Below, piece after piece: positions 2,943 to 16,775 of a stretch of 64,000 nucleotides of DNA (the first letter of the stretch is position 1; each line of letters opens with the position of its first letter). Below the pieces are notes generated by a model. It was not told the DNA's origin. It made no database searches and saw nothing but the letters and a program-made list of their open reading frames with translations. Source of the stretch: Candidatus Bathyarchaeota archaeon (GTDB lineage Archaea; Thermoproteota; Bathyarchaeia; Bathyarchaeales; Bathycorpusculaceae); NCBI GenBank assembly GCA_963780185.1, contig CAWABA010000004.1, forward strand, positions 1 to 64,000. Direction: 5' to 3'. Both the position numbers and the translations under genes were made by a program.

Positions 2943-3306
2943 TTAAGATTGAAGCAGTAAGATGGCTTTTGCCAGGTCGCCTTGGCATTCCTGCAATGCT
3001 TCTTTGGCTTTCTCAGGCTTTTGCCCGTTTGATCCGCCACTAGCCTTACATCTTCTTCTGAAAACGCTGCTGGTGCCGGCTTTGCGCCTAAGCGTTGTCA
3101 TGGGGCTTGCTCCGAAACTTCGCCGCCGATAACTTGATACATTTTTTGTCCTTGAACTTGTAAAATGGCGACTTCGGGCTCATCTATAACTATGTCTTTT
3201 TTGCTGTTTTGATAATAACTTGTTGAACGTCTGGGACAGAATCCATGTTCATTCCCATACGCTGCATCATACGTTTTTGCTCTCGTGGATTCATGCGTTT
3301 ATTCAT
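2943..3306 (-). CDS. nac: Archaeal nascent polypeptide-associated complex protein (indels and one in-frame TGA)
   Basis: Manual translation MNKRMNPREQKRMMQRMGMNMDSV...DIVIDEPEV...FSEEDVRLVADQTG...GDLAKAILLLQS, with a UBA-like C-terminus. Confidence 0.85.
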
Positions 3307-3363
3307 AGAGTTATCACTTTACTCAAGAATATTCTGCATGATTGAAATTTGATAATACTTAAC

Positions 3364-3860
3364 TTACGTTACTTTCTCGCTGGCAGCCATGACCATGTCT
3401 ACTTTGACGGCTACACCAGTTTTAAAAGCAGTCATCTCAACACTTGAAAGTTGAGCTCGCCCGACGGCCAAAACATTTCCCGTCTTCATCCAAAACGATG
3501 ACTTCGTCCTTGGCGCGAATTTCCTCATCAACCTTAACCACGTGAACAGCAAAAACATCTCCGCCTTCAGCAATAAATTGTGCAACTTCGTTTTCACTGT
3601 AACAAAACATTTGGCGAACGGGAGTATTTTCAGCCATGAACTTAGCTGCTTTAATGCTTAGGGAAAGCAAGCCGTCGGTTGGGCGGAGTGTAGCTAGTCT
3701 TTCGCCGTCAAGGTTTATGAAGCGTATCCTTCCTGTCCGAGGAGAAAGCTGTATTTCAATGTTTTCTGGGAACAGTTTTTCTCCTACGCCTTTGCCAAAT
3801 TGGTAGTCAGCAGTGCCTCTTACTTTGACAAGGTGTTTTCCACGTTTTTCACCCTCAGAT
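3364..3860 (-). CDS. PUA-domain RNA-binding protein (archaeosine TGT C-terminal-like), frameshifted; start approximate
   Basis: ADYQFGKG, SPRTGRIR, LATLRPTDGLLSL, GGDVFAVHV, VLAVGRA and GVAVKV motifs. Confidence 0.8.
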
Positions 3861-3929
3861 TGGCTTTTGTGTTTTCGACAAGTATAAACATAACAATATA
3901 ATAAAGACAGTGAAAGGTGAAAGTTCACA

Positions 3930-4444
3930 TTGAGATGCGAAGTCTGCGGACACAAAATTCACAATGACCCAGTAACGGCAGTGATTGAAGGGGCAAGACT
4001 AACAGTTTGCCTTGAATGTTCAAAACATGGGAAAGTAATTCGTCAAGAAGAAGTTGCTCTTCCAGAAACAAGCCGTCAAAAAACCGCAGGCTCCCAGTGA
4101 CACATGCGCCTTCAGTAAGAAAACCGATGGTTGCAAACGTTCAAATAACTCAGGAGCTCACTGAAGACTACCCTAACAAAATAAGTGTGGCACGGGAGAA
4201 ACTTGGGCTTACCCATGAAGAACTGGGTAAAAAAATAAACGAGAAAGCTTCTGTTCTGAGAAATCTTGAAGCGGGAAAAATGGAGCCCAACAACCAGTTA
4301 GCCTCAAAACTTGAGCACATGTTAAAAATTAAGCTGCTTGTTCCAATCTCTGAAGAAAAGGTTCCGCCTCCAACTGCAAAATCAGCCAATCAAGAATTGA
4401 CTTTAGGTGACATGATTGAGATTGACAAGAACGACGAGGAGGCG

Positions 4445-4468
<24 letters not shown>
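3930..4468 (+). CDS. Archaeal multiprotein bridging factor aMBF1 (zinc ribbon + HTH), frameshifted
   Basis: TTG start LRCEVCG...VIEGARLTVCLECSKHG, then HTH AREKLGLTHEELGKKINEK and the LTLGD motif. Confidence 0.88.
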
Positions 4469-6323
<1,855 letters not shown>

Positions 6324-9765: not shown

Positions 9766-10194
9766 TCACAATATGTTGTAGATGTGTATGGTTACTCCTA
9801 GGATCAGTGCGAGAGCCCAAATTGCGAATGTTGGTATCATTAGTTTCCATGTTTTGGCGCAGCCGAGTTCCCCTAAAGGATGAGTTATCCAAGAAGCAAT
9901 GATGACAAAACCCAGCAGGATCGCGGCTGTTCCTGAGGCAACATGGAGCCAGACAACTGTTGACTGCAAAATTGACAATCTGCCTATGAGGTTGAAGTTT
10001 GTGCTAAAAGTGGGAATCATTACGGTAAACGTGGTGGCAAGGTTGAGTGCAAGTGCTAATATGCTTAGGAAGCCATGCATTATGAGGTTTCTGTTTTTGG
10101 TTCTTACTCTGTAGGGGTAAACGCCTATTACGAGTAGGAGTAATGCGATGATTTGGATAATTGAAACCATGTTGCCCGTAAGATCAAGCGCCAT
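9766..10194 (-). CDS. Four-TM membrane protein with conserved His (possibly cytochrome b-like/DUF420-like)
   Basis: Hydrophobic helices; LIMHG and VWLHVASG. Confidence 0.6.
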   Translation of the reverse strand: MALDLTGNMVSIIQIIALLLLVIGVYPYRVRTKNRNLIMHGFLSILALALNLATTFTVMIPTFSTNFNLIGRLSILQSTVVWLHVASGTAAILLGFVIIASWITHPLGELGCAKTWKLMIPTFAIWALALILGVTIHIYNIL

Positions 10195-10349
10195 AACTAT
10201 TCCGCTGACATTTTAGAAAGCTATACATAACTATTAATTGTTAGCTATTAATTGTTTTATCTGCCAAAATTTAACTCGCAACACAACAGGGCATTTATTT
10301 TCCTCGGCTTTTCGATGTATAATCGATTCTTCCCCGTAAGAAGACGCCG

Positions 10350-10650
10350 CCCAACACCCACCCGAAAGGTCGCAGCCCGCAAAAACCTTCAAGCCGCCCA
10401 AACTGGAAAACCCACCAGAAACCGAACCTGCCGCCGAATAAGCCGCAGCGCCCATATCCGACAATGTCCGACAATAACTTCAACATAGCCTCAACATACA
10501 AAGTCGCATTCCGCCAATAGCAAAGTCGCAATGTTCAAGCAGAAGCCAAGCCTAAACCAAAAAAACAACCCAAAACACAAAGGCCCAAGGCGGAAAGTCG
10601 CAACTTTCACCAAACCAAAAGTCGCAACTTAAAAAACTAGACAAAAACCG
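10350..10650 (+). repeat. Dispersed ~300-bp non-coding repeat, copy 1
   Basis: Inverted homolog at ~59880-60180; the 40-bp core 10469-10508 is identical to 60029-60068. Confidence 0.85.
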
Positions 10651-10760
10651 AAGCGAAGCAGACTGAAACAACTCTTTCTCTTACGCGAAACAGCCGTGTT
10701 TTTGCTTGGGTTTCCCAAAGTTTTAAACCTTTGTAAGCAAATTAATGTTGCAAGTTAACA

Positions 10761-11828
10761 GTGGTAGGTTTGACTTTAAATTACCATTATATGCAGCTTC
10801 CACGCGAGGTCATCGTTGGAAAAGGAACCCTCCAGCGAATTCCGGAAGTGGCAAAGCGGTTACGCCTCAGGGGAAGAGCACTGGTGATGTCTGACGCCGT
10901 ATGCTATGAGCTTGCTGGAAAAACAGTTTCCGACCTCCTTGCCGAATCAGGCTTATCAGTTGATTTTCTTCTCGTCAAAACCATGACAACAAAAGACATT
11001 GCAGACGTAGAAAATCAAATAAAAGATCTAAAGCCACAGGTACTTTTCGGAGTGGGCGGAGGCACCATAATAGACGCTGCCAAAGTAAGTTCCAGAAGCC
11101 AAAATATACCATTCATCAGCGTACCCACCACCGTTTCACACGACGGCATCGCGAGTCCTCTAGCATCCATCAAAGGCTCCGACAAGCCCTATTCAGTACT
11201 TGCGCAGGCACCGTTAGCGATAATTGCCGACACAGAAGTAATAGCGAAAGCACCCTGGCGTTTTGTGATAAGCGGCTGCGGAGACGTAATTGCCAAGTAC
11301 ACCGCCGTCAAAGACTGGAAGCTGGCGCATTTGGAGCATAACGAGTATTACGGCGAGTACGCTGCCAGTTTGGCGTTAATGAGCGCGAAACTTGTGAGTC
11401 AAAACGCAAAGCTCATCGTGAACCACGAAGATGAAGGCCTACGGGTGCTTCTGGAGGCTTTGATTAGTTGCGGCGTCGCCATGAGCATCGCAGGAAGCAG
11501 CCGTCCATGCAGCGGCGGGGAACACCTGTTTAGCCACGCCCTGGACATAGTGAATTCGCATCATGCCATGCACGGTGAACAATGCGGCGTAGGATCAATC
11601 CTGACTGCTTATCTTTATCGAGCAAATTGGCAACGAATCAGGAGCAGCCTCAAGTTGATAGGTGCACCGACAACCGCTAAGGAGCTGGGCGTATCCGACG
11701 TCGATGTAGTTAAAGCTTTAGAGTTAGCCGCGAGAATAAGACCTGAACGCTACACCATCCTTCAGAAGCTAAACCTAAGTTTGGAAGCATGCGAGAAAAC
11801 TGCGAAGGCAACAGGAATAATCGATTAA
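10761..11828 (+). CDS. egsA: sn-glycerol-1-phosphate dehydrogenase
   Basis: GVGGGTIIDAAK, SVPTTVSHDGIAS, GSSRPCSGGEHLFSHA and HGEQCG. Confidence 0.95.
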   Translation: MVGLTLNYHYMQLPREVIVGKGTLQRIPEVAKRLRLRGRALVMSDAVCYELAGKTVSDLLAESGLSVDFLLVKTMTTKDIADVENQIKDLKPQVLFGVGGGTIIDAAKVSSRSQNIPFISVPTTVSHDGIASPLASIKGSDKPYSVLAQAPLAIIADTEVIAKAPWRFVISGCGDVIAKYTAVKDWKLAHLEHNEYYGEYAASLALMSAKLVSQNAKLIVNHEDEGLRVLLEALISCGVAMSIAGSSRPCSGGEHLFSHALDIVNSHHAMHGEQCGVGSILTAYLYRANWQRIRSSLKLIGAPTTAKELGVSDVDVVKALELAARIRPERYTILQKLNLSLEACEKTAKATGIID

Positions 11829-11937
11829 TCACCTGAATCGTGAAAGGTAATTATTGGAAAAAGACAAAACAGCCTCAAAACTAAGTGCCTACTAGGCAAT
11901 GGTTAAAAAAGCATAGTTTTGAAAAGGGAGAATTGGT

Positions 11938-12699
11938 TTATGGGGTTTCTTTGGTTGCGGGGGCTTTAGTTTCTGGCTCTGGGGCTGCTGCTGGTGTTTC
12001 CAGGGGGACTTTGGGTTCAGCTTTGAAGGCTTCAACGAATCTTGTCTCGGCAAGGTCAGGTAGGAATTTCTGGATGTCGATTGCGATGCCGCGTTTGGCG
12101 ATTTGTATTCCTTCAATGTAGAAGGCTACTTCAGGCATGTCAATCGTCAAGGTTTTGTCTTGAATGGTTATTTTGAATTTGTTTTCTTCAGCTAAGGGTA
12201 TTCTGCGGTGGATGAGTGCACCAATTTTTTCTTCGTCGGTCTCGATTTTCTTGCTGACTACTACGTCGTAGATCAGGGTTTTTCCTGCCAGCGGAGGGTT
12301 GTAGTCTAAAAGAACTCTTCCTGCGCCGATTGCGCGGACGCTTGCCATTTTGCCTTGGTATTCTATGCGTGCGCCGATGACTGGGTTGATTTCTTTTGCC
12401 AACAGGTTCCGTAGGGGTACGCGCTTGACTTTTTCTGGGTCTCGCTGTCCGAATCCTTTGTCAGGTGAGATTTCGACGGTTGCAGGCGTGTTTAGTTCCA
12501 TGGTTGTTAGGCTGTCGTCTAAGGCTTTAAGCACCCAGCCTTCGCCTACCACTACCAGTTTAGGTTCGTATATTTCGCCTTCTTTGTGAAGGTGTTCTTT
12601 TTTAGCGACATCTTCGTGTGTGGTGTCGAAAACTTCGTTTGTTTCCTTAACCTTTGCTGAATAATCGATTATTACGAAATCTGCTTTTTGAAAGGTCAT
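11938..12699 (-). CDS. Long-type archaeal FKBP peptidyl-prolyl isomerase (SlyD-like)
   Basis: DFVIIDY, VFDTT, GFGQRDP and DYNPPLAGKTL motifs. Confidence 0.9.
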   Translation of the reverse strand: MTFQKADFVIIDYSAKVKETNEVFDTTHEDVAKKEHLHKEGEIYEPKLVVVGEGWVLKALDDSLTTMELNTPATVEISPDKGFGQRDPEKVKRVPLRNLLAKEINPVIGARIEYQGKMASVRAIGAGRVLLDYNPPLAGKTLIYDVVVSKKIETDEEKIGALIHRRIPLAEENKFKITIQDKTLTIDMPEVAFYIEGIQIAKRGIAIDIQKFLPDLAETRFVEAFKAEPKVPLETPAAAPEPETKAPATKETP

Positions 12700-12910
12700 T
12701 TTGAATCCTCTATCTTAACGCGGAAGGTTTAAGTTTCAAACGCTAATAAAAACTTTGTCCAATGCAGCATGTATGCTTATTATCTAGCTTGCATGGCTTG
12801 GCTTAAAATGTTTTTTGTGGCTGAGATGGGTTAGGCGGTTGTTTTTTTCTTGGGGAATTTTGGTTTTGTTTTGGGTTGCTTTTTTGGTTTACGTTTTGAG
12901 GTGTTGGTGG

Positions 12911-12980
12911 GTTGAGTCTCTAATAGTCAATAGTAGTCTGTGGTAGTCTTTAATAGTCAGGAATAGTCAATAAAAGTCAA
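12911..12980 (+). promoter_or_regulatory. Seven 10-bp-phased AGTC-core direct repeats (putative operator array)
   Basis: gttgAGTCtc taatAGTCaa tagtAGTCtg tggtAGTCtt taatAGTCag gaatAGTCaa taaaAGTCaa. Confidence 0.7.
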
Positions 12981-12992
12981 CCGAGAAAGCGC

Positions 12993-13292
12993 GTGCCTAA
13001 AAAGATGGTTTATGTGCCTCTGGACCAAAAAGTAACCTTTCCAGCGATCCTTGAAAAAGGCAACCGTGTGCAAGTCCCCAAAGTCATCAGGTGGCAGTTC
13101 AAAATGGAGCAAACCCAACTGCTCAAAGTCAGCGTAAGCATCAAAGGCACCCTCAACTTCCAAAACTTCTACGCAAAAACCGACAAACAAGGACGCCTAA
13201 CAATCCCCAAACTGACACTTATCATAATGACGCGGCAAGAAAAACCAAACGCCGCGGGACAGATTCTGGACGTAAAACTTGAACCAACATAA
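12993..13292 (+). CDS. Tandem AbrB/SpoVT-domain DNA-binding protein (MraZ-like architecture)
   Basis: Two swapped-hairpin motifs: LEKGNRVQVPKVIR and TDKQGRLTIPK. Confidence 0.7.
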   Translation: MPKKMVYVPLDQKVTFPAILEKGNRVQVPKVIRWQFKMEQTQLLKVSVSIKGTLNFQNFYAKTDKQGRLTIPKLTLIIMTRQEKPNAAGQILDVKLEPT

Positions 13293-13357
13293 AGAAAGGG
13301 TCGTTTGCCGCGGTTTTTGGCATAATTTCTTCCTCTTTTGCTTTACGTGCCTGCGGT

Positions 13358-13635
13358 TTATGCTGTTTTGCTTGTGTATTTGGGTCCGCAGCACCTTGGG
13401 TTGTCGTAGTATTCGCGGCAAACCTGCATGAGGCTCCTGTCCTGAGTCAGCAACGCAACTTCCATAGGCCAATTAGTAAGCGTCACAAGGTTCTTCATAT
13501 CCGAAATAAACATCGCTAAACTGCAGAAAAGAACCTTAACCTCACCCAAGTCCGAAAGATCCTGGCTTTGGGCGATTTCAGGAGTCACCGCAATGTTAAG
13601 CTTCACTCTTCGTTTTTCTTTCGCTTCCCTTAAAG
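13358..13635 (-). pseudogene. C-terminal fragment of a TrmB-family regulator paralog
   Basis: EAKEKRRVKLNIAV...ISDMK...LTQD...EYYDN aligns with the C-terminal domain of the TrmB at 14070; no HTH present. Confidence 0.7.
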
Positions 13636-13711
13636 CTGGGTGAAACATATTCAAGCGACCTAAAAGTTGCCGCCAACACATACGATATGGCTTTGAGCTT
13701 TTTAGGAGTCG

Positions 13712-13826
13712 GTTGCTTAATCGGGAGAGAAACATCTGATATTGCAACTCCAAACCGTCGGCGTAGGCTTCCTGGCAGCACGCAAAAAAGTTGCTTAATC
13801 GGGAGAGAAACATCTGATATTGCAAC
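13712..13826 (+). CRISPR. Orphan CRISPR mini-array: two identical 37-bp repeats and one 41-bp spacer
   Basis: GTTGCTTAATCGGGAGAGAAACATCTGATATTGCAAC at 13712-13748 and 13790-13826; GTTGC/GCAAC ends and ATTGCAAC 3' tag; no cas genes in the window. Confidence 0.72.
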
Positions 13827-14061
13827 CTACGTAAACCAGCTTTACGCAGCCTTGAAAAAAGGCGGGGTCCTTTTGGCGATTGAAACTGAAAAGACAGACA
13901 GCATGTTTAGCCAAATCCTTTTCGAAGATGTGTTTGGATTAAGGGAGCCGCCTGGATTGCACCCGGACGAGTTGAGGACTGTTTTGGAGAAAACTGGATT
14001 TACAAACCCTTCAGTTACGAGTAAAATGGGCTTGCTCTATGCCGTTGCCCAGAAATCATAG
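13827..14061 (+). pseudogene. C-terminal fragment of a class I SAM methyltransferase-like gene
   Basis: LYAALKKGGVLLAIE...ELRTVLEKTGF; begins directly after CRISPR repeat 2, with no SAM-binding motif I. Confidence 0.6.
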
Positions 14062-14069
14062 CCTTTTTC

Positions 14070-14870
14070 TCATTTATCTAAAAGATTGTTGAGTTTTTTG
14101 TTATTCTTGTTTTCTTTCACTGCATTCATGTTTTCATAGTATTCCTTGAAAAACGTTACTAGGGCTGGGTCCTGTGTGAGTATGGCAATTCCGCCGGTCC
14201 AATTTGACACTATGAGCAGCGTTTTAATGTCGGAGATCAGTAAGCCGAAAGGGCAACAAAGGACTCTTGTTTTGCTAACCACGCGTGCGGGTATTGTGGT
14301 CTCTTCATTGATGTCTTGCGTTGTAGCTATATCTAGCTTAACCCGCCGTTTTTCTGCCGCCTCAGTTAGTCCAGAACCAATTTCGTGCATAATTGAGGGG
14401 TCAGGAACGAATGCTGTAATTTCTTTTCGTGCTGAATGAATTAATGTTTTCATTCTGTTGAGTATGTTCTTTTCGGCCACGAATAACGTAAGCAAGTTCA
14501 AGTTCTTCGGTTTTTTCTGCTGAATCATACATCGGCGTTAATAACTCAGCTAAATTGTCGGCTTCCTTAATTTTTTCGTCAAGACTGGCTGTCAATTGCT
14601 GTTTCAAATTAGCGAAGGTTTCTTTTGGCGACAGAGACCTATAGAGGTTAGGGTTTCCTTGCTGAATGATCACGGCGCCTTTTCGTGTGAGTCCATTCTA
14701 GAGCATAGTATATTTTGGAGTCTGAAATTCTGGTTTCCTTGCATAATTCACTTGCTGTAATGTTGGGGTGGGTCAGGAGTGTAAAGTAGGCTAGTGCTTC
14801 TTGAGTTGTTAGCCCCAGTTCTTTGAGTTGAGAAATAATTCTGTTTTGTACACTTGTTTCTGAGATCACG
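14070..14870 (-). CDS. TrmB-family transcriptional regulator (frameshifted in three pieces)
   Basis: LKELGLTTQEALAYFTLL...TASELC...SKIYYAL HTH, GNPNLYRSLSP and a C-terminal effector domain. Confidence 0.82.
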
Positions 14871-15007
14871 GTCAATTGTTTCCTTCCTTTTCTAGTAAGT
14901 TGTTGGCAGAGAAATCTTATATAGTTTACTACTTCTTTTTGGAAGAAGTAAAAAAATAAAATGGAGAATGAACATAATGAAAATGCGAGAAAAGAAGAGG
15001 GAGAAAC

Positions 15008-16005
15008 ATGCAAGCTGTACTTACTAGAAATTTGTCTAAAAAATATCACGCGGTAACCGCGCTAGAAGACGTAAACCTTACAGTTGAGCAAGGAGAGATT
15101 TTCGGGTTACTCGGACCAAACGGTGCAGGCAAAAGCACTCTGATGAAAATTCTTACGGGATTCACATTGCCTACGAAAGGGACAGCAACGATATTGGGTT
15201 ACGATGTACTGACAGAAACGGCGAAAGTGAGGCAAAACATAGGATATTCACCTCAAGGCATAACAGTAGACGACCATTTGACAGCAAAAGAGAATCTCAT
15301 TCTCACAGGCAGTCTATACCATGTCCCAAATGGCACCCTGAAAAAAAGGGCCGATGAATTACTTTCGATGGTTGAGCTTGACAAAAGAGCAAACGATGTG
15401 GCAGGAACGTACTCAGGCGGAATGAAAAAGAAACTCGACATCACTTTAGCCTTAGTAAACAGACCGAAGTTGCTGCTTCTATAGATGAACCTACTCTTGG
15501 CCTAGATGTACAAAGCCGATATAAAATATGGAAGCTGGTGGAGGAACTAAGAGAGCAAGGAACCACTGTTCTGGTAACGACACATTATTTGGAGGAAGCT
15601 GACAAGCTTTGCGACCGCATTGCAATCATTGATCATGGAACAATCAAACTCTCAGGTACTCCAAGTAAATTAAAGAACAAAATGGGAGGAACAGCTGTGT
15701 CTATAGAAATCACCAATTCTAAAAACGACGAAACCAAAGCCGTAATTTCAGAGTTAAAGAACCTGCCTTTCGTTAAAGACACCAGTTTTGACAGCAACAC
15801 TCTGAAAATCTGCATAACGGGCGACGAGAGTATGATTCCCAAAATACTCAAAGTAATAGTCAAACACGACATAGACATGGGGGATGTGACTTTTACTAAT
15901 CCAACTCTTGATGATGTTTTCCTGCATCACACTGGATACGAGATCAAGGAAGAAAAAGGAAAAAGCCATGAAAAAACTTTGCAAGCGATAAAGAGGGTAA
16001 GATAA
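15008..16005 (+). CDS. DrrA-like ABC exporter ATP-binding protein (frameshift at ~15482)
   Basis: GPNGAGKST, YSGGMKK, DEPTLGLD, TTHYLEEA and C-terminal PTLDDVF. Confidence 0.9.
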
Positions 16006-16775
16006 TGACCGATTTTCTAACTGAGATTAAAATTTTGACTACTAGGTGGTTTAAACATCTAACAAGGACACCCATAATGCTCTTCGTCACCCTCCTTCAG
16101 CCATTAATCTGGATGTTGCTTTTCGCTAATCTCTTTGAAAAAGCAGCAATTCTCCCGGGTTTCCCAGCGGACAGTTACGTACAGTTCATAATAAGCGGAA
16201 TCTTGGCTTTAAACGCCTTAGGTTTCTTAGCCATGGCTGGAATATGCATTTTCGACGATATCCAATCAGGCTACATTCAAAGAATCATGACGGCGCCAAT
16301 TTCGAGATCGTCCATAATAATAAGTAGATTCATTTACGCAACAGTGCTGACAGTAGTCACTTCAATAATATTGCTGGCCGTAGGATCACTCATGGGCGTA
16401 TCAGTAGCGGCTGGACCAGCAGGGTTCTTAGGAATTCTGTTCTTCGTTGCCCTGTTCACGATCGGAGTCACTGCAGTTTCAATGATATTTGCTTTCCTTT
16501 CAAAACAGCAAGTAGTCTTTCTTTCCATCACGACGCTGGTGCAAATGCCGATTTTGTTCATGTCAAATGCATTAATGCCCTACGATTTCATGCCCTCATG
16601 GATACGGACCTTGGCTCAAATCAACCCCGCAAGCTACCTTATCGACGCAACGCGATCTTTAATCTTAGATGGCTGGGCTTGGAGTACGCTGTCCACAGCA
16701 TTAGTGGCATTAGTGGTGTTTGATTTGCTGGCAGTACTCATAGCCACGCTAGTAAGACGTAGGCGACTGGAATAG
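16005..16775 (+). CDS. ABC-2 type permease (DrrB-like)
   Basis: Six TM segments; LLQPLIW, APISR and INPASY. Confidence 0.88.
   Translation: MTDFLTEIKILTTRWFKHLTRTPIMLFVTLLQPLIWMLLFANLFEKAAILPGFPADSYVQFIISGILALNALGFLAMAGICIFDDIQSGYIQRIMTAPISRSSIIISRFIYATVLTVVTSIILLAVGSLMGVSVAAGPAGFLGILFFVALFTIGVTAVSMIFAFLSKQQVVFLSITTLVQMPILFMSNALMPYDFMPSWIRTLAQINPASYLIDATRSLILDGWAWSTLSTALVALVVFDLLAVLIATLVRRRRLE

Follow-up and report, generated by a model that had tools for sequence, protein, structure and literature searches.

Off-target spacer integration has so far been seen mostly with over-expressed or purified Cas1-Cas2. In the type I-E system of Escherichia coli, Nivala, Shipman and Church reportedly found in 2018 that non-canonical spacer integration gives rise to spontaneous CRISPR loci. 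Products of this kind have been proposed as raw material for new CRISPR arrays. Two papers, in the portions that deal with off-target events in E. coli, attribute those events and their possible role in founding new CRISPR loci to Nivala et al. 2018 (PMC6698737, PMC7054753). In vitro, Pyrococcus furiosus Cas1-Cas2 integrates at non-CRISPR positions, with paired sites one repeat length (30 bp) apart; one preferred site in that account shares 43% identity with the repeat, with the similarity at its borders (PMC6698737, section on non-CRISPR sites). A scheme attributed to Shmakov et al. 2020 proposes three ways in which isolated arrays may arise, off-target acquisition among them (PMC13142298).

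Here we analyze a candidate natural case in a 64,000-nucleotide stretch of DNA (the window; contig CAWABA010000004.1, positions 1 to 64,000) from a Candidatus Bathyarchaeota archaeon. We put the probability at roughly 0.85 that a repeat-spacer-repeat unit in this window is a two-repeat neo-CRISPR, formed when ectopic (off-target) Cas1-Cas2 integration placed a 41-base spacer in a gene.

The repeat unit and its host gene

As an earlier, sequence-only reading had noted, a 37-bp sequence occurs twice as an identical direct repeat on the plus strand of the window (13712-13748 and 13790-13826). The copies enclose a 41-bp spacer (13749-13789) whose letters are exactly those quoted at the time. The bases next to the two copies differ on the left and on the right, so the repeat is exactly 37 bp long. 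None of 100 shuffled windows contained two or more repeat matches. The 37-bp sequence occurs at these two sites only in the 2.75-Mb assembly (13 contigs, 93% complete) with up to three mismatches tolerated, and a genome scan for exact repeats 50-110 bp apart returned no other 37-bp repeat-spacer-repeat unit outside the native CRISPR array. A short-spaced exact repeat at C6:18383 was considered as a second neo-CRISPR and rejected as a plain tandem duplication.

The unit is embedded in the remnant of a PadR-family gene (13645-14061, plus strand), which retains the last 112 of about 251 codons, runs through both repeats and has an internal ATG at 13687 that opens a 124-aa ORF. In the congener G002, an open frame of 143 codons aligns with this entire segment, and the single length difference is a gap of 78 bp (41 + 37). 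We used the G002 protein as a query against 100 other genomes of the genus and obtained a match in nine. The ninth, G024, covers residues 103-142 only and is uninformative on the insertion site; it was left out of the count. In all eight homologues that cover the site, alignment with the window shows the 37-bp stretch once, with no counterpart of the 41 bp. Its encoded peptide in the homologues is ..GVGCLIG-E-SDIA-, and copy 1, which is either the original or the duplicated target stretch, encodes ..CLIGRETSDIAT. The window alone carries the extra 78 bp among the aligned homologues; the insertion amounts to 26 codons and the frame stays open. Judged by these alignments, the "repeat" is a piece of PadR-family coding sequence, not a CRISPR-type repeat.

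This comparison alters the picture drawn from the window by itself, in which about 80 bp of leader-like DNA (13635-13711) preceded the first repeat and a truncated methyltransferase began where repeat 2 ends. From 13645 onward the DNA is coding, and the segment up to 13711 is homologous to the intact gene in relatives rather than to a non-coding leader; the gene starts upstream of both repeats instead of after them. Its family also had to be revised. Full-length homologues match PadR (PF03551) with E-values from 2e-10 to 5e-9, and methyltransferase families match their C-terminal domain only below the cut-off. The remnant by itself has no Pfam match. In the G002 homologue (contig C7 of that genome; about 957-1710 of locus L006), the PadR N-terminal domain and the C-terminal 143 codons do not share a frame, reflecting a frameshift or an assembly indel.

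A separate deletion next to the unit

To the left of the PadR-family remnant, a TrmB-family regulator gene survives as a C-terminal fragment of roughly 95 codons (13358-13644, minus strand), and here the sequence-only reading of an N-terminally truncated TrmB paralogue was right. The fragment has 81% DNA identity to G013:C24:10193-10477, the 3' portion of a TrmB-like ORF (257 aa, minus strand) that is intact in this related genome. Homology to G013 runs from window positions 13360-13644 (10193-10477) and then jumps, so that window positions from 13645 onward correspond to 16586 onward, inside a 251-codon gene. The window thus lacks 6,108 bp of G013 (about 6.1 kb). This deletion junction, 13644|13645 (10477|16586 in G013), is outside the repeat unit, with 67 bp between it and the downstream repeat 1. 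First alignments had seemed to extend the PadR-gene homology to the left of 13645, an extension rejected when comparison with G013 placed the breakpoint.

An array that replaces the 5' ends of two divergent genes, as had been proposed, does not fit this arrangement, since the repeats are inside the right-hand gene. From the comparison with G013, the truncation of both genes is attributable to a deletion separate from the repeat insertion, and the N-terminal part of the TrmB fragment would have been lost in that deletion. The G013 segment that is absent here (approximately 10478-16585) encodes ORFs that, from their translations, we take to be ArsA/ArsD-like proteins, a nitroreductase, a flavodoxin and a further PadR protein; another ORF just outside the segment is presumably ArsC-like. 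In the lineage of the window, a small arsenic/redox island has apparently been lost.

Over 111 retained codons, comparison of the window with its homologues gives dN/dS values of 0.07-0.13 (six of eight pairs computable, two saturated), in the range of 0.04-0.18 seen when the intact homologues are compared with one another. The remnant contains neither a stop nor a frameshift, and no base differs between its two repeat copies. These observations suggest that both the deletion and the integration are recent on this lineage.

Other elements in this part of the window were recorded. A neighboring full-length TrmB paralogue (14070-15049, minus strand) matches Pfam TrmB and Regulator_TrmB and is split into overlapping ORFs at 14648-15049, 14401-14673 and 14070-14528; the two apparent frameshifts make it either a pseudogene or the site of assembly indel errors. 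An intergenic element of about 120-140 bp (12840-12981) contains AGTC phased every 10 bp, seven times (12915-12978). At least six further copies occur in the same genome (C1, C5, three in C6, and C7), with many more in congeners at 75-97% identity, a distribution that suggests a dispersed repeat found throughout the genus. Another segment, of about 57 nt (12705-12762), has one or two matches in many congeners at 79-88% identity. It lies just upstream of the start of an ORF (11938-12699, minus strand) that we assume from its translation to be FKBP-like, and no tRNA was found at 12705-12762.

The native CRISPR system and its resemblance to the site

The window has no cas genes, as had been observed; they lie, with a CRISPR array, on contig C13 of the same assembly. 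There, csa1 (2022-2909), cas1 (971-2029; E 2.5e-73), cas2 (749-964) and cas4 (1-658, cut by the contig end) form a csa1-cas1-cas2-cas4 module on the minus strand, followed by an AT-rich leader and then the array (3046-4705). Csa1 is of type I-A and, together with the TrmB-family regulators, points to an archaeal genome. The array comprises 22 repeats of 37 nt each, separated by 21 spacers of 34-49 nt that include two of 41 nt. Four consecutive spacers (C13:4095-4366) form two alternating pairs, A, B, A', B', that are similar and non-identical; this pattern could reflect the duplication and later divergence of a block of two spacers, or repeated acquisition of the same two protospacers from related invaders.

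Six of 119 other genomes of the genus carry the native repeat family, likewise with a length of 37 nt, which makes it a sporadic resident of the genus. Against Rfam, the native repeat gives only sub-threshold CRISPR-DR25 matches. Searches of the 93%-complete assembly did not find Cas6 (PF01881, TIGR01877) or DevR/Cas7 (PF01905), and for Cas3 gave a cas3_core match below the cut-off only. Given this level of completeness and a cas4 that is cut by a contig end, the missing Cas6, Cas7 and Cas3 should not be equated with true absence.

The dimensions of the unit are those of this array: the duplication has the length of the native repeat, and the insert falls within the native spacer range. Resemblance in sequence is concentrated at the ends. 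Over its whole length, the 37-bp stretch is identical to the native repeat at 16 of 37 positions (43%), a level reached by 1.5% of genome positions. At the borders, defined as the first eight and last eight positions, 11 of 16 match. Only 0.037% of genome positions (2,041 of some 5.5 million, with the native array masked) have a border match of at least 11/16. The middle of the stretch matches at 5 of 21 positions, which is the chance level, and in the reverse orientation the border match is only 8/16.

The junctions were examined in the same way. The TCG directly before copy 1 equals the last three bases of the native leader, and the ATTGCAAC 3' end of the repeat matches the native ATTGAAAG handle region at six of eight positions. 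Requiring at least 8/10 matches at the leader-repeat junction and at least 6/8 at the distal end, thresholds set after the match was seen, selects 21 positions: 15 native repeats and six elsewhere, including this site. The resemblance of borders and junctions thus holds by a criterion that is partly post hoc.

Origin of the unit and comparison with known systems

In the series of events that we favor, the genome's own Cas1-Cas2, encoded with Csa1 and Cas4 on C13, would have put a 41-bp prespacer into the PadR-family coding sequence, at a target stretch with both ends similar to those of the native 37-nt repeat. Strand transfer would have joined the prespacer to one strand at 13711|13712 and to the opposite strand at the position corresponding to 13748|13749, a spacing of 37 bp. 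Repair of the gaps would then have copied the 37 bp and left a repeat-spacer-repeat unit with 78 extra bases, in frame. We infer Cas1-Cas2 as the agent because the site is empty in all eight homologues, the duplication equals the native repeat length and the insert is of native spacer size. With the genes of these enzymes present and the borders resembling those of the native repeat, the whole has the marks of full-site integration away from a CRISPR array. Of the origins offered by the sequence-only reading, ectopic Cas1-Cas2 integration is the one that gains support, from the empty site and the lengths; a deletion relic and a trans-acting guide are not supported. Weighing against integration, no protospacer was found, the whole-stretch identity of 16/37 is only in the top 1.5% of positions, the junction thresholds were set after the match was seen, the junctions lack read coverage, and the search of the 93%-complete assembly gave no Cas6, no Cas7 and no Cas3 above cut-off.

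The search for a protospacer, which the sequence-only reading had proposed for the host genome and viral collections, gave either nothing or chance-level matches. In the genome itself, the best non-self match of the spacer by blastn-short was 15 nt in a glycosyltransferase-like ORF, at chance level. A 29-nt spacer core with up to three mismatches had no match in 119 congeners, and a 24-nt core had none in metagenome and genome contigs. Exact spacer patterns of 41, 22, 20 and 22 nt returned nothing from viral contigs. In phage and plasmid collections, the best blastn match was 24 nt at 96% (E 0.05).

An insertion by some other mechanism could also have left a footprint of this kind. An integrative element could have entered at a 37-bp attachment core and later been deleted down to 41 bp, or filler DNA could have been captured at a staggered break. 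Site-specific integration likewise leaves direct repeats around an insert, and there is no protospacer or PAM to link this insert to CRISPR adaptation. We consider these routes quite unlikely, as they need the 37-bp length, the spacer-range size of 41 bp and the resemblance at the ends to be three coincidences. No integrase or element remnants are present at the site, and the target duplications of transposons and casposons are generally much shorter than 37 bp.

The unit could instead be an assembly artefact, with the 78 bp arising from a mis-join or a graph loop in a metagenome-type assembly of 13 contigs that is 93% complete. Two matching runs of peat-metagenome DNA reads gave pieces within 13902-14200 only, at 95-99% likeness, and no matching reads over 13300-13901, the interval that includes the repeats and both junctions; among the runs listed there was no RNA run with this stretch. 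An artefact is nonetheless very unlikely. The insert is internal to a contig of 143,943 bp, a loop would require reads linking the 41 bp to the 37-bp stretch on either side, and the 41 bp have no other match in the assembly.

The third alternative is a functional single-guide mini-array, trans-acting or regulatory, of the MGE-competition or crRNA-like regulator type. The repeat-spacer-repeat architecture fits this idea, and the repeat RNA is predicted to form a hairpin (-9.8 kcal/mol, z -3.2). We regard a guide function, which the sequence-only reading had raised, as highly improbable. Mini-arrays that are MGE-borne or regulatory would be expected to have a repeat nearly identical to that of the host array and a spacer with a target; here the repeat identity is 16/37, the best genomic spacer match is the chance-level 15 nt, and no collection searched yielded a target. 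Cas6 was not found, and the cas genes are not adjacent. The upstream DNA is a promoter-less gene remnant, and the origin of the unit by duplication of coding sequence stands regardless of any function. The native repeat has no such predicted hairpin, and we treat the one in the neo-repeat as incidental.

Relatives of the repeat in other arrays were sought, as had been suggested, in the genome itself, in Rfam and in metagenome, genome and viral contigs, and none was found. The neo-repeat region matched no Rfam family at E-values up to 10. A pattern consisting of the repeat ends plus a gap had five matches in metagenome contigs, none of them an array; four are in what we read as related bacterial adenylate-kinase genes, and the fifth fits the pattern ends only. 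The same pattern gave one chance match in genome contigs (a Bacteroidales contig, no array) and none in viral contigs. It is hardly credible that the unit is the relic of a larger bona fide CRISPR array, foreign or ancestral, reduced by deletions: the GTTGC...GCAAC ends of the two repeats do resemble a CRISPR repeat and the deletion junction is 67 bp away, but all eight homologues have a single copy of the repeat as conserved coding sequence, which refutes such an origin as far as sequence can tell, and neither the Rfam CRISPR-DR search nor the pattern scans revealed an array elsewhere.

The unit most likely amounts to a neutral scar, left in a gene that was already, or was soon to be, truncated by the independent 6.1-kb deletion, and it is probably not a working guide. 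We favor this view because the DNA upstream is promoter-less, 21 of the 37 repeat positions depart from the native repeat and no Cas6 was found in the incomplete assembly. It is unlikely, by comparison, that the unit is a CRISPR array at birth, in which read-through transcription with renewed recognition by the adaptation complex, or processing through the ATTGCAAC 3' end, would establish a second, independent array with a repeat family drawn from protein-coding sequence. Were that so, the locus would be direct natural evidence for the rise of new repeat families in archaea. Whatever its fate, the unit urges caution in annotation: what looks to the eye, or to a CRISPR finder, like a two-repeat "orphan array" may be part of a gene that has been duplicated, not the remnant of a defense locus.

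Several known systems share features with this locus. Mini-arrays of the crRNA-like type pair partially with cas or toxin promoters, and mini-arrays borne by viruses and other MGEs have repeats that match those of host arrays and spacers that target rival viruses. The unit has the minimal repeat-spacer form of CRISPR repeat-like regulatory RNAs; unlike those, which sit in CRISPR-cas loci as far as their published outline goes, it is on a different contig from the cas genes and its spacer has no meaningful partial match (10.1101/2023.03.03.530964). Virus- and MGE-borne mini-CRISPR arrays also have a single spacer, two repeats and no adjacent cas genes, at least in the summary available for them (PMC6858448). 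Here, in contrast, the repeat belongs to host coding sequence, and neither an MGE context nor a target was found. Orphan mini-arrays (Shmakov et al. 2020, CRISPR J), as excerpted, resemble the unit in having two repeats far from cas genes, and differ in that its origin is directly visible from empty-site homologues (PMC13142298).

The closest parallels are with off-target integration. As in the portion of the P. furiosus study on non-CRISPR sites, the paired sites are one repeat length apart, the identity is 43% (16/37 here) and the borders carry the similarity; that work used a 30-bp repeat and plasmid substrates in vitro, whereas our case would be a repaired chromosomal product (PMC6698737). 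The locus would accordingly offer a natural read-out of what a csa1-cas1-cas2-cas4 module with a 37-nt repeat recognizes, namely the repeat borders and not the middle. With the E. coli case of Nivala et al. 2018, as it is summarized elsewhere, it shares a spacer-sized insert, a duplication of native repeat length and a site that is partly repeat-like. It differs from that case in being natural and archaeal, in its csa1-cas1-cas2-cas4 module and 37-nt repeat, in its in-frame coding site, and in a pre-integration state documented by eight homologues. Clean natural products with such a record would indicate that the accident occurs, and becomes fixed, in wild archaeal genomes. Off-target integration is a known kind of accident, and the unit described here is most likely a natural instance of it.
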